Of a DNA stretch of 64,000 nucleotides, positions 37,301 through 43,300 are shown one piece after another. The position numbers were made by a program. The stretch is from Escherichia coli (GTDB lineage Bacteria; Pseudomonadota; Gammaproteobacteria; Enterobacterales; Enterobacteriaceae): the NCBI RefSeq assembly GCF_050320075.1, contig NZ_CP190018.1; one strand, written 5' to 3'. Each line of letters begins with the position of its first letter. The first letter of the stretch is position 1.

Positions 37301-40300
37301 TAATTAACAGGACAGGGCTTATAATAATAGTTAGCTGGCTGTGTATTAATTTGATGTAATGCATGATGCAGATGCTGAGAAAGCATCTGCATCTCTCGGT
37401 GGTGTTATTTGACCAGCTCAGGTGTTACCTGACTCACCGCATTGGTGTAGTAAGGCGCGCCCCAGCCCGGTTCCGGCCAGAATGCACCATAGCCGTAATC
37501 CCACAGGTTATAGGTGGTATTAACCACTTCTCTCAAATGCCACACCTGGATGCCCTGCATATTCACTTCGAGGAAGTTATACGGGACTTTATTGATAAAG
37601 CCAGGTTGTTCACCCTGAATGGTACCGAGGATGGTAACAAAGTGATTACGATAGTTCACTGGATCAAGGAAGCCGCTTTGTCTGGCGAGCAGTCGGCCCT
37701 GATAGTTGGCTTCAATATCAGGCTTCGCATAGCTATCCAACGGTAATACAGCGATTTCTAACAACGTATCCGTTTTGCCATTGATAACGTTGATAACCTT
37801 CCCACCAAAGCGCGCTTGTTGACCAACATATAACCCCGGCTGGTTATGAACAGCAACAAAACTTTTTTGAATATCAGGTTGGTTATTGCCTTTGATATTT
37901 TGCGGAATTGAACTACATGCGGCAAGCAAAAATGAAAGGCTGAGGATGAGTGCACCTTTTGTCATGTTCATGTTACTATCCTTATCAACAAATATTAAAA
38001 CCATAATAGATATTTCTTTATAGTTTTCATCTGATTCTGAGGCGATATGCCTGATAGTAACGTAAACCTGTCTGATGTTTATATCCCTTCTGTTTAGTTT
38101 AATTCTGTTAATTTTGGGGCGTGACATGAGTATCCATCGCCCCATAAAATAGCCTTTTTTTAAAGGTACATAAAATCTATTTTTATTCAATGCTTATAAA
38201 GCGCTAATAATCAATATTATGGTATTATATTCTGATAATGATTTGATAAGCGAATTCTTTTGCCGGATGGTATTTCTATTTCCACCCCATAATTTATAGT
38301 TTTTTCATCAGGTAGCGATCTCTTTAAATAAGGCGTGCGTGACATTTTTTTTGGGTTAAGTGTCTCGTATTGAAATACTTCGAATTGATATTCAGACATT
38401 TCTGCCCATGTTTGAATTTTATTGTATCGGGAGAGTGTCGTAAAGGCTTTAACTTGCTTATAACATTGTTTTTGGAATTCTTGCTGATATTTTAATATGT
38501 CATTGTATGAAAGATTGGTTATCCTGGCCTCTAAGAATTTAATTATTGTCGAAGCAATTTCCGCTTTTGCTCGTAAAAAGTTGTCATTAATGGTTAATAA
38601 TGTTGAAAATAAACCTTCGATTTGTTTGTCAAGATATTGTTCGTCTTTATATAATTTTGGGGTAGGGTGTTCTTTATGTGAAAAAATAGTGTCACCTAAA
38701 TTTGCGTCAGTGAAATTTATATTAAGTAGATCTTCGAAATAAAACCTTGACAAGGTTAGAACGAACCCGGACAGGTTCTGTCCTGTCATATTGAAATCAA
38801 TAAAGTTGGTTCCGGCAAAGACTTTCATCCTGTTTTTATTTTCACTGTGTTCAATATATAACTTCGTCATTTTTTGATACAGGCTTTGAATATCTTTTAT
38901 ATTAGTCGGTAAGTCAGCTCGTTGTTCAGCATTAAAATTAGTATCTGAAAACATGGTTTGGACACTGAATCTTACTGGTATTCCCTCTTCTACGCTAATT
39001 TTAGTTATGATTGCCTTGTCGGGTTTAGGATTAGCGACAACAATGATTCGACATTCAGAATTTTTATTCTTTTCGTATCTAATGTTATTAATCTGATTAA
39101 GTATTGATTGTGTCTGTTGCGTAAGTGGTGTCGAACTTATCGTTTCAATGTTATTAATAAGACTTACAAGTTGAGCCACAATTTTTGAGTAGTCTGCATT
39201 TGTATATGTAGTGTTCGTGTGGCACGCATTAATTTGTTGAAGTTGGTGTTGCGCTAAATCATATTGATCAGAGGTATATCCTTCTCCAGAGAATGTGGAA
39301 TTAATGGGTTGTTGTTCTTCCCAATTATCGCAAGGCCACTTCGGTGTATCTGGCGTTTTAGCATTATCGGTATTTGTTGTGCAGTTATAAATATCGCCGT
39401 GATATGTATTTATTATACCTGGGGTAAAGTCAATTGACATAAAATTCCTTATTCATCATTTGTTTTATGCTAAGATGTTTAAATTGGATAATTAGAACAG
39501 GAATGGATTTTCTTCTACACACAATAAATGTAATGCGTTATCTCTTCCTGATATAATTACCTTTGATTTCCCTTTTATCTCCACCCGGTAATATTTGTGT
39601 ATAAAAAAAGGGCAGTGATAGTATCGTAAAGGAAAACGTTAACAACTATCAAAAAGCGCTCATTTTAAAAAGTTATGATGTTCACCGATAGTGTGTGAAG
39701 TGATATTTTTGTGATGTTTTAGATGTGTAATAATGAACCAGGTTAAAGTGTATTTAAAAATGTGTTGTATTGGCGACTGAAATCTGCCCTTTAAAAGGGG
39801 GATAGCACTGAAACAAAGAGACATTGCTTCTCCGATAAAATGTCAGAGAAGCATGATTGCGTGGTGATTGTCGATTGATGACTTACTGACGGATCCGTCA
39901 TCATTCTCAAAGCATTAGTTAAGTTATTTGTGATTTTTAAGGATTATCCTATCTATGATTTTCTACTCAGAAGGATAAGGCACTCACAATGCTCCTTATA
40001 GTTTACTGCTGGCATCTATTTAAAATAGCATTTGAGTCAAATAGCCCATCAAGATAGCCATACCTAAGATAACCGTCAGGAATGCAGCTATCATCGGCAT
40101 TCTGAACATTGATTTAAGTAATATCACTTCCGTCAGGCTTGCTCCGGCACTGCCGATGATTAATGCCATTAATGCTCCCAGCCCCATTCCTTTTGTCATC
40201 AGAACAGATGCCAGAGGGATAACCGCCTCTGCCCGGATATACAGCGGAATTCCGACAACGGCGCTCAATGGGATGGCGAAGGGATTATCTGCCCCTGCAT

Positions 40301-43300
40301 GAGCGGCAATCCACTCTGAGGGAATAAAGCCATAAATAAAAGAGCCTATTAATACCCCTAACAAAAGATATGGCAGTACATCTTTAAACTGTTGCAACGC
40401 ATCTTTGGTGGCTAGTTTTATGGGATTAATACTTACCACAGCTTTGGTACTGCAACAGTTTACTACAGGTTTCTCAATGGCTTTAGCCGCTGGACTACAG
40501 CAACTCACTTTTATTGGCGTATATGTCGTCCCCGGCGAAGTTTTGGCTGGAGCACAACAATTTGCTGATGAGCTTTTACTGGCAATGATATGACGTTCAA
40601 ATCCCAGGGAATCCAGGATAATACTGGCAAGTACGGAGACGCCGGCGGCGATAATCGCGTACAACAAGGTAACTTTCCAGCCAAAGGTCACCCACATTAA
40701 CCCGACGATAATGGGATTAAGTAATGGGGAAACAAATAAAAAAGTGAGAGTCGGACCAAACCCGGCTTTCGCTGATAACAATCCACGTAACATGGGGATT
40801 GTCGAGCAACTACAGAACGGGGTAACGGCTCCCAACAGAGCAGCCAGGAGATAGCCTTTCCCTTTTCTTGCCCCCATCATCTGCTGGATTTTATGGTCTG
40901 GCACCTTTTGTCTTATCAGGCTGACACCGGCACTAATCACTATAAACAGCAAAGAAAGCTCGACGGCGAGAAACACAAACATCTCTGCGGCATCTTGCAG
41001 CATCGCAAGCCAACTACTCATACGTAACCTCATTGAATGAATCCATATTTCCAGAATAATCGAAATGAAATTCAGATCAAGATATTTCTGGTATTATCGA
41101 AATATCAACCAGACAAAGGGGGTGTCATATGCAGTTGGAAGAAGTTGCTAAAGCGCTGAAAGAGCTAGGTCACCCGACCCGTTTGTTCATATTCAAACAC
41201 CTGGTCAAAGCGGGGGAACAAGGTTTGCCGGTCGGTGAGTTGCAAAAGCAGCTTGGGATCCCCGGCTCCACACTCAGTCACCATATTTCAGCACTGGTAT
41301 CGGTAGGGCTGGTCAAACAAAACCGTGAGAGTCGAACGCTGATGTGTGTTTCGCAATACGCAATGCTGGAAGCGATAATTGAATTCTTACGTGAGGAGTG
41401 CTGCGTAAATAGCAAAATTGCCTGATGCGCTACGCGCTACAGATTTCATGCCATGCACGGTTTTGTAGGTCGGATAAGACGCGTTAGCGTCGCATCCGAC
41501 ATAAACAAAGCGCACTTTACCAACTATGGGCAGTGGATATCGCCGCTTTATTTCAAGCGTTTACCCGCTTCATCAACCACTTTCTCGCCATCTTCCTTGG
41601 TGAACGCGCCTTGTTGCGCATCTGGCAGAATTTCCAGCACGACTTCTGAAGGGCGGCACAGGCGAGTTCCCAGCGGCGTCACCACAATCGGGCGATTAAT
41701 CAGAATCGGGTGCTGAAGCATAAAGTCGATTAACCGATCGTCAGTAAATTTATCTTCTGCAAGGCCCAGTTCCTCATACGGCTCGACGTTTTTACGCAGC
41801 AGCGCGCGTACGGAAATCCCCATATCGGCAATGAGTTTGACCAGTTCATCACGCGTCGGTGGGGTTTCCAGATAATAGACAATGGTCGGTTCTGTGCCGC
41901 TGTTGCGGATCATCTCCAGCGTATTTCGCGACGTGCCGCAGGCTGGGTTGTGATAAATGGTAATGTTGCTCATATCAATATCTCATTACAAAGTGAAAGA
42001 GAGACGTAGCGCCAGCGCAGCCAGCGTCACAAAAAGCACCGGCAGGGTCATGATAATCCCTGTACGGAAGTAATATCCCCAGCTGATAGTCATATTCTTC
42101 TGCGAAAGTACGTGCAGCCAGAGCAGCGTCGCCAGGCTACCAATTGGGGTAATTTTCGGCCCCAAATCGCAGCCAATCACGTTGGCATAAACCATCGCTT
42201 CTTTGATAACGCCAGATGCCGTGCTGCCATCAATGGACAACGCGCCAACCAGTACCGTCGGCATATTGTTCATAATAGAAGAGAGGAAGGCGGTGAGGAA
42301 TCCGGTGCCGAGCGTCGCGGCCCACAGGCCGTTTTCCGCCAGCACGTTGAGTACGCCAGAAAGATATTCCGTTAGTCCGGCATTGCGCAGGCCATAAACC
42401 ACCAGATACATGCCGAGCGAGAAGATGACAATCTGCCAGGGCGCACCGCGTAGCACCTTACCCGTATTAATTGCATGACCGCGTTTAGCGACGGCAAATA
42501 ATATCAGCGCGCCCACTGCCGCAATGGCGCTGACCGGAATGCCGAGCGGTTCCAGAACGAAAAATCCCACCAGCAGAAGCAGTAAAACAACCCAGCCAGT
42601 TTTGAACGTAGCAGGATCTTTAATCGCTTCTGCGGGAGATTTCAGCAGCGCCATGTCGTAGTTCTGCGGAATATCTTTGCGGAAATAGAGATGCAACATC
42701 ACCAGCGTGGCAACAATCGCGGCGATATCCACCGGCACCATCACCAAGGCATATTCGCGAAAGCCGAGGCCAAAGAAATCTGCGGAAACGATATTCACCA
42801 GGTTGGAGACAATAAGCGGCAGGCTGGCGGTATCGGCAATGAACCCGGCCGCCATCACGAACGCAAGCGTCGTGCCTTTACTGAACCCTAAAGCCAGCAG
42901 CATGGCGATGACAATCGGTGTCAAAATAAGCGCCGCGCCATCATTGGCAAACAGAGCTGCAACGGCAGCACCGAGCAGGACAATCCAGGTAAACAGCAAG
43001 CGACCGCGTCCATTGCCCCAGCGTGAGACGTGCAGCGCCGCCCATTCAAAAAAGCCGGACTCATCCAGCAGCAGGCTGATGATAATGACGGCAATAAACG
43101 CCGCCGTCGCGTTCCAGACGATATTCCACACCACCGGAATATCACCCGGATGAACCACGCCCGTAAGCAACGCCAGTACCGCGCCGAGCGTTGCACTCCA
43201 GCCGATGCCTAAACCTTTCGGCTGCCAGATAACCAATACGATGGTCAGGACAAAAATAGCGCCTGCCAGTAACATAATGCCTCCCGGATAAAACACATCT

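Follow-up and report, generated by a model that had tools for sequence, protein, structure and literature searches.

Methylarsenite, MAs(III), is far more toxic than arsenite, As(III); it comes from anaerobes and from the reduction of arsenical herbicides and feed additives, and it requires two thiol ligands only. Among the repressors of the ArsR family, SpArsR of Shewanella putrefaciens 200 was reported to bind MAs(III) via Cys101 and Cys102, to lack the third ligand, and to be unresponsive to As(III) (PMC11868830, PMC13236881). In an E. coli sensor, SpArsR reached 73% of full derepression at 1 μM MAs(III), compared with 9% at 50 μM As(III) (PMC12124457). In that 2025 biosensor study, SpArsR is Sput200_1227 and the gene it controls is the neighboring arsP, Sput200_1226; the native 222-bp (base-pair) arsP promoter is also printed there (PMC12124457). 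NdArsR is the second published MAs(III)-selective ArsR, and a response to MAs(III) without one to As(III) has been published for the derepression of SpArsR and NdArsR only (PMC12124457, PMC11868830). On the transport side, the literature describes ArsP of Campylobacter jejuni as an efflux permease for MAs(III) and trivalent roxarsone (TCDB 2.A.119). Reviews note that gut bacteria have never been assessed for activities of the ArsP type (PMC6953987). Here, we analyzed a 64,000-nucleotide stretch of an Escherichia coli chromosome (NZ_CP190018.1; the whole stretch is referred to as the window), in which a divergent pair of genes, encoding an ArsP-type permease and a regulator of 98 amino acids (aa) of the ArsR/SmtB family, lies beside arsRBC.

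We read this pair as the E. coli member of the SpArsR-ArsP system for methylarsenite sensing and efflux, presumably an ortholog of the SpArsR-arsP pair of S. putrefaciens 200, which would act on trivalent organoarsenicals and above all on MAs(III), and we put the probability of this reading at about 0.68. The kind of system is already known; the E. coli pair is a new, so far unannotated member of it. RefSeq labels the two genes only as a 'permease' and an 'ArsR/SmtB family transcription factor,' and a literature search by four RefSeq protein accessions and by yhiS/arsC returned nothing relevant on these E. coli genes. The first-pass annotation of the window had proposed an organoarsenical-responsive efflux module added to the arsRBC locus. 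The functional part of that proposal is largely supported by the sequence comparisons, mainly through the regulator, with its shared operator and its pairing with the permease gene, and further through the ArsP homology and the linkage to ars genes, whereas the word 'added' did not hold. What makes the pair of interest is that it is prevalent in E. coli but missing from K-12, that it has spread to plasmids and a phage, and that it suggests a structural hypothesis for the ArsP family.

A divergent permease-regulator pair between yhiS and arsC

The gene order in the window is chuS, dctR, slp, yhiS, permease, regulator, arsC-arsB-arsR, and gor. The divergent permease and 98-aa ArsR-family genes that had been called between yhiS and arsC were recovered as open reading frames (ORFs), both of them intact. 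The features of the pair are as follows.

40020..41021, minus strand: ArsP-type permease gene (333 aa by the RefSeq start; PF03773)
40425..40574, minus strand: codons of the Cys-rich central loop of the permease (residues ~150-199), with three vicinal Cys-Cys pairs
40803..40823, minus strand: TPFCSCS codons of the permease (residues 67-73), with Cys70/Cys72, a predicted substrate-binding thiol pair
41045..41066, plus strand: candidate operator site 1, ATATTTCCAGAATAATCGAAAT, with the inner palindrome ATTTC-N10-GAAAT
41082..41103, plus strand: candidate operator site 2, ATATTTCTGGTATTATCGAAAT, with the inner palindrome ATTTC-N10-GAAAT
41129..41425, plus strand: SpArsR-type ArsR/SmtB regulator gene (98 aa), a predicted repressor
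41345-41347, plus strand: Cys73 codon of the regulator
41399-41404, plus strand: Cys91-Cys92 codons of the regulator

The permease start at 41021 is the RefSeq start of the identical gene in strain 23AR0303, and the frame is open beyond it, up to an ATG at 41033 (a 337-aa frame).

The regulator and its resemblance to SpArsR

The regulator is the more informative half of the pair for a functional reading. Hidden Markov model (HMM) searches matched it to HTH_20 and HTH_5 of the ArsR family in Pfam, and it scored 61.9 bits against the NCBIfam model HTH_metalloreg (cut-off, 55). An AlphaFold2 (AF2) model, with a predicted local distance difference test (pLDDT) value of 93.4, places its elements in the order α1-α2-α3-α4-β1-β2-α5. 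The top Foldseek match of the model is AfArsR of Acidithiobacillus ferrooxidans (6J05; TM [template modeling] score, 0.88), which is also the closest solved relative by sequence (E = 4.7e-10). In agreement with the first-pass annotation, the protein has no ELCVCD site, present in the neighboring canonical ArsR, and carries a C-terminal Cys-Cys pair (...EECCVNSKIA); there is no CVC in helix α3 and no cysteine past residue 92.

Its only cysteines, Cys73, Cys91, and Cys92, are spaced C-X17-CC and align on Cys83, Cys101, and Cys102 of SpArsR, to which the regulator is 58% identical over 92 residues. NdArsR, whose cysteines show the same C-X17-CC spacing, is 42% identical to the regulator, and AfArsR and the canonical E. 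coli ArsR reach only 33% and 31%, respectively. This closeness was judged by pairwise identities, and SpArsR itself is 63-66% identical to other clade members. The earlier likening of the Cys-Cys pair to that of MAs(III)-selective ArsR proteins is strengthened by this identity and by the aligned cysteines, although it had missed Cys73 and with it the count of three conserved cysteines. Cys73 is invariant in all 121 regulator homologues, and the Cys-Cys pair is kept in 117-118 of the 121. In the AF2 model, Cys73 lies in strand β2, four residues ahead of α5. Published work puts MAs(III) binding on the Cys-Cys pair alone, which does not account for this invariance.

AfArsR, a type-2 repressor responsive to As(III), shares the fold, and its As(III) ligands Cys95 and Cys96 align with Cys91 and Cys92. 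However, its third ligand, Cys102, has no counterpart in the E. coli protein, and it has a Tyr where the family of the E. coli regulator has the invariant Cys73. SpArsR likewise has the C-X17-CC cysteines and no downstream third Cys of the AfArsR type; it differs from the E. coli regulator in a 10-residue N-terminal extension. Taken together, the comparisons support the placement of the regulator in the class of C-terminal Cys-Cys ArsR proteins that includes the MAs(III)-selective SpArsR.

The SpArsR sequence used is the translation of the codon-optimized construct in Text S3 of PMC12124457, 105 aa with Cys83, Cys101, and Cys102, in which residues ~26-33 are approximate, having been rebuilt across frames where the text of the PDF had dropped bases. 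Because the published Cys numbering is reproduced, we consider the reconstruction sound apart from a few residues near 30. NdArsR was also translated from the construct in the supplement, with residues 45-47 and 69-70 approximate and rebuilt across frames.

Two candidate operators in the intergenic region

The 107-bp intergenic region (41022-41128) carries two copies of a 22-bp element (sites 1 and 2), which has 2 matches in the 64-kilobase (kb) window, both intergenic, with 0.01 expected by chance. The element is conserved in nine taxa, mostly as two copies between the regulator and permease genes, and was found in Escherichia (including E. fergusonii), Citrobacter, Aeromonas, Vibrio, Shewanella sp. 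D64, Marinobacterium, Desulfovibrio, and a plasmid variant. The arsP promoter of S. putrefaciens 200 holds ATATTTCTGGTATTATCGAATT, a match to site 2 at 20 of 22 positions, together with two weaker copies. The two systems have a near-identical operator sequence (ATATTTCTGGTATTATCGAA). They are also alike in that the two genes are adjacent and, in Shewanella, the permease promoter is under the regulator (PMC12124457). They differ in the size of the intergenic region and the number of operator copies (222 bp with approximately three copies, versus 107 bp with two in E. coli) and in that the E. coli pair adjoins arsRBC.

Site 2 lies between the -35 (TTGATA) and the -10 (TATCTT) of a promoter-like site on the minus strand, 41108-41079, which faces the permease gene, and site 1 overlaps a plus-strand promoter-like site that faces the regulator gene, with a sigma-70-like -35/-10 pair at 41033-41060. 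The regulator gene is preceded by a good ribosome-binding site, and this site and the operators are conserved. From this arrangement we infer that repression may work by occlusion at the two candidate operators. The regulator and its two defined operators are a candidate native E. coli part for a methylarsenite sensor.

The permease

The permease matches PF03773 (ArsP_1; E = 6.7e-53) over residues 13-334 of the 337-aa frame. It is 34% identical end to end to ArsP of Campylobacter coli (E = 3e-62), whose gene we retrieved with a published arsP primer (PMC3774448), and its Cys70 and Cys72 align on Cys65 and Cys67 of that protein. Judged on these matches, the permease belongs to the ArsP family; an identity of 34% does not fix its substrate. 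We compared 97 full-length PF03773 sequences, namely, the query, the C. coli ArsP, and 95 representatives of the family with 31-60% identity to the query; 94 of the 97 retain Cys70, and 85 retain Cys72. The two cysteines are part of a TPFCSCS motif at residues 67-73. The first-pass annotation had located this motif correctly and called it characteristic of ArsP; however, it is nearly invariant across the whole of PF03773, and its CSC core is common to the Cu/Zn exporter family SO_0444 and to SaoE (bioRxiv 10.1101/2022.07.06.499078; PMC3219624), so that it does not discriminate ArsP from its relatives.

NCBIfam holds no ArsP-specific curated model. The best NCBIfam matches of the permease were SO_0444 (NF033936) at 109.7 bits (cut-off, 300) and SaoE (NF040736) at 86 bits (cut-off, 325), members of the same PF03773 superfamily with the same CSC motif. 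We rejected both labels, the scores being far below the cut-offs and a genuine Campylobacter ArsP being equally weak on the same models (81.8 bits for SO_0444 and 105 bits for SaoE). Because the Campylobacter protein scores in the same range, these weak matches are no argument against ArsP.

An AF2 model of the permease (pLDDT, 87.8) places TPFCSCS at a break between helices 52-66 and 71-83. Its central loop, modeled at a pLDDT of ~50, has Cys-Cys pairs at 155/156, 174/175, and 189/190 and contains 9 Lys and Arg versus 4 Asp and Glu residues. The length and sequence of this loop vary even between Escherichia species, while the richness in cysteine is kept, and permease alleles run from 322 to 338 aa with differing loop lengths. 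At least one vicinal Cys pair occurs in the loop of 33 of the 97 sequences. Campylobacter ArsP also has a central loop with a Cys-Cys pair, the E. coli loop being longer and having three such pairs, whereas in relatives of the Shewanella permease the Cys-rich loop is for the most part absent (the Shewanella sp. D64 protein has 307 aa). The setting differs as well, as arsP in Campylobacter opens an arsP-arsR-arsC-acr3 operon under a canonical, ELCVCD-type ArsR and no divergent C-terminal Cys-Cys ArsR. Kyte-Doolittle hydropathy settled neither the topology of the permease nor the side of the membrane on which the Cys-rich loop lies. A Protein Data Bank (PDB) sequence search with the permease returned zero matches, and we know of no solved structure in the ArsP family. 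The model offers a structural hypothesis for that family, namely that its fold resembles that of the Ion Transporter superfamily and that the thiol pair sits where a helix is broken.

Genomic company across taxa, plasmids, and phage

In every context read (eight contexts), the regulator gene is divergently paired with a gene for a PF03773 permease; these contexts were drawn from Escherichia, E. fergusonii, Citrobacter, Aeromonas, Vibrio, Shewanella, Desulfovibrio, Marinobacterium, and plasmids. Because the pairing recurs throughout, we regard the two genes as a self-contained module. Arsenic genes accompany the pair in several separate settings, namely, arsRBC in Escherichia, arsRDABC in lambdoid prophages of Citrobacter, and arsH with an ArsD-like gene on plasmids.

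A mobile variant of the module, with ~85% nucleotide identity and a synonymous divergence (dS) near 1, is present on at least 616 plasmids of enterobacteria, most of them conjugative. In 168 of these plasmids, three genes come after the regulator gene: a bona fide arsH (400 bits, compared with a cut-off of 292), a gene for a SigZ-like extracytoplasmic function (ECF) sigma factor, and an ArsD-like gene. The examined sources of the variant were pTB4019 (L002), p11011-CTXM (L023), L024, and NC_005014.1. Plasmid NC_005014.1 is presumably R64. On pTB4019, the variant abuts genes for a Tn3-family transposase and a resolvase. Many of the listed sources of variant-bearing plasmids are pig or chicken, an impression that is unquantified.

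In the Citrobacter prophages (L004-L006), arsRDABC and the regulator-permease pair form cargo between the replication genes and dinI/rusA. The temperate Citrobacter phage Chris1 (ON041214.1) carries the pair under the annotations 'YraQ family membrane protein' and 'arsenical resistance operon repressor.' In Vibrio (L012:5001-5895), the gene after that of the regulator, which it overlaps, encodes a SigZ-like ECF sigma factor; the Vibrio sigma factor and that of the plasmid cluster (L023:9287-9832) are 29% identical. A contig of Desulfovibrio sp. that resembles a mobile element (L015:1-2461) has a second PF03773 permease gene at a distance of ~1.3 kb from the module, clustered with a regulator of the AfArsR type (Cys-Cys plus a downstream Cys), an S-adenosylmethionine (SAM) methyltransferase, and a thioredoxin-like protein, so that two PF03773 permeases with two different ArsR types stand side by side.

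Distribution and loss of the module in E. coli

The whole module is present in 2,220 of 5,426 complete E. coli genomes (~41%), so that E. coli itself commonly carries a candidate pair of the SpArsR/ArsP type. A contiguous scar allele occurs in 3,168 of these genomes (58%), and the two alleles together account for 99% of them. K-12 is without both genes, as the first-pass annotation had expected; it aligns to the window at 39441-39780 and then again from 41356 onward. Its scar (L001:2952-3130) holds relics of both genes, namely, a 60-bp piece of the permease gene, equivalent to 40354-40414 of the window, and the final 23 codons of the regulator gene in decayed form (70 bp, 41356-41425; MLDAIIGISRREYCVNSKIA in K-12 versus MLEAIIEFLREECCVNSKIA in the window). 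The junctions of the scar are identical in K-12, AR_451, G1/2, and O55:H7. In E. fergusonii, the module is at the same site, in the order gor-arsRBC-regulator-permease, and the dS of the permease and regulator genes between the two species is 0.27-0.32, compared with 0.32 for arsC. Relative to E. fergusonii, the permease has a ratio of nonsynonymous to synonymous divergence (dN/dS) of 0.17 and the regulator one of 0.05; within E. coli, the ratios are 0.07 and 0, respectively.

The relics at identical junctions, the same site in E. fergusonii, a dS equal to that of arsC, and the dN/dS values lead us to conclude that the module is ancestral at the locus, is under purifying selection, and was lost once through an old two-part deletion rather than added. 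The module is invisible in K-12 because that strain carries the deletion scar. The earlier descriptions of the module as 'extra' and as inserted beside arsRBC are accordingly withdrawn. The 580-bp AT-rich flank that had accompanied them is real in size and composition (39441-40019, 579 bp, 33.5% GC versus 49.2% across the window); however, it is mostly the native upstream region of yhiS, of which ~340 bp (39441-39780) is common to K-12, and only 39781-40019 is module specific.

Proposed mechanism and alternative readings

We propose that the 98-aa winged-helix repressor, presumably as a dimer, binds the two 22-bp operators over the divergent promoter-like sites and keeps both genes off. MAs(III) would bind the vicinal Cys91-Cys92 pair, just beyond the C-terminal end of α5, and release the repressor. 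The permease would then be made; it is probably a secondary transporter, with a predicted fold like that of the elevator-type carriers of the Ion Transporter superfamily, and may take the arsenical at Cys70/Cys72, at the helix break in the middle of the membrane, and expel it. The disordered loop with its three Cys-Cys pairs probably captures the substrate or hands it on. By analogy, the E. coli proteins would share their ligand and substrate with SpArsR and C. jejuni ArsP; the promoter assignment, the transport mechanism, and the function of the loop are likewise put forward as proposals.

A bolder version, which we hold only tentatively and think will probably not stand, is that the disordered loop is a built-in metallochaperone, similar to ArsD, that picks up trivalent organoarsenicals in the cytoplasm and relays them to Cys70/Cys72 of an elevator-type carrier, with Cys73 of the regulator adding a redox switch or a wider range of ligands. 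If the loop does act as such a chaperone, the module would be a common, overlooked determinant of the survival of commensal E. coli against methylarsenite from gut anaerobes or arsenical feed additives, standing in the species as a presence/absence polymorphism with the module in about two-fifths of complete genomes.

Several observations weigh against MAs(III) as the ligand and substrate. A two-thiol site for MAs(III) has no need of Cys73, yet this residue never varies, which leaves room for another or a broader ligand. The identity of 34% to Campylobacter ArsP is too low to infer specificity, PF03773 also holds the Cu/Zn exporter SO_0444 (PMC3219624), and SO_0444 and SaoE are the top NCBIfam matches of the permease, both far below cut-off. 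Most stand-alone copies of the module (Aeromonas, Vibrio, Shewanella D64, and Marinobacterium) have no ars genes nearby. In addition, the promoter assignments are consensus matches alone and weak, as the scan returned no excess of sites over shuffled sequence (6 versus 4.7). The main rival, sustained by the invariant Cys73, the poly-cysteine loop, and the many taxa without ars neighbors, is that the module senses and exports other or broader thiophilic species, As(III)/Sb(III) or Cd, Zn, Cu, or Hg, with a three-thiol site made of Cys91, Cys92, and Cys73 of the partner subunit and with a loop that binds metal. In ArsR/SmtB dimers, the β2 region before α5 faces the C-terminal end of the partner's α5, and the modeled position of Cys73 would suit such a site. 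The family-wide CSC motif fits this rival, as does the requirement for SO_0444, the best NCBIfam match, for growth under Zn or Cu stress (PMC3219624). However, SpArsR, with the same three cysteines, is reported to be unresponsive to As(III) for want of a third ligand (PMC11868830, PMC13236881), in line with its 9% derepression. The permease reaches only 110 bits on the SO_0444 model, whose cut-off is 300, in the range of Campylobacter ArsP, and SO_0444 itself is predicted to be under a ZntR-like regulator rather than an ArsR (PMC3219624). The informative neighbors, furthermore, are arsenic genes (arsRBC, arsRDABC, arsH, and the ArsD-like gene). On balance, we consider a different or broader ligand rather unlikely and favor trivalent organoarsenicals.

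Two further alternatives concern the history of the pair and whether it functions at all. A recent, horizontally acquired insertion beside arsRBC, whatever its function, would account for the absence from K-12 and from 58% of complete genomes, for the AT-rich flank, and for the mobile relatives beside Tn3-family genes on plasmids and on phage. It is contradicted by the relics of both genes in the scar, whose junctions are identical and which is contiguous in the 3,168 genomes, as well as by the arsC-regulator-permease order and the dS values in E. fergusonii; the plasmid variant has a nucleotide identity of only ~85%, with a dS near 1, and the module flanks contain no repeats and no integrase genes. 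We regard such an insertion as scarcely credible. Very improbable, too, is that the module is a silent or decaying remnant with no present function in E. coli, a reading suggested by its loss in most E. coli without obvious consequence, by an IS5 beside it in one strain, and by the variable loop length among alleles. Against decay, both frames are intact, the whole module is retained in 2,220 genomes, dN/dS stays at 0.05-0.17 between species and at or below 0.07 within E. coli, and the operators and ribosome-binding site are conserved. Sensing and efflux of methylarsenite by an ancestral module remains our preferred reading.

Flanking genes and other features

The remaining features around the pair are as follows.

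38217-39440, minus strand: yhiS, a 407-aa ORF, intact in the window
39441..39780, no strand: AT-rich region upstream of yhiS, outside the module; aligns with K-12, AR_451, G1/2, and O55:H7 at 87-92% identity
39781..40019, minus strand: 3' flank of the permease gene, only in module-bearing genomes and missing from the scar allele
39825-39853, minus strand: terminator-like hairpin in the permease 3' flank, with a stem of 11 pairs and then a T-rich tail
41426..41547, no strand: spacer on which the regulator gene and arsC converge; also present in the scar allele
41548-41973, minus strand: arsC
41548-43683, minus strand: arsC-arsB-arsR together
43330-43683, minus strand: canonical ArsR gene (ELCVCD site), ~2 kb from the 98-aa regulator

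An Rfam search gave zero matches inside the module. In strain 23AR0303, the sole genome with 100% identity, an IS5 lies in the AT-rich spacer 3' of the permease gene (L003:3688-4668, equivalent to 39441-40019 of the window). The yhiS gene has a GC content of ~0.33 and no NCBIfam match; its K-12 copy is disrupted by IS5, and it is frameshifted in the O55:H7 and O103:H2 strains examined. A palindromic element resembling a repetitive extragenic palindrome (REP) occupies 41426-41510, between the ends of the regulator gene and arsC, and part of it matches elsewhere in E. coli genomes. Between arsR and gor, two Rfam matches to the AgrB family of antisense small RNAs (sRNAs) (106 and 98 bits) lie on the minus strand at 43834-43917 and 44068-44151, in what is the known agrA/agrB-dinQ region.

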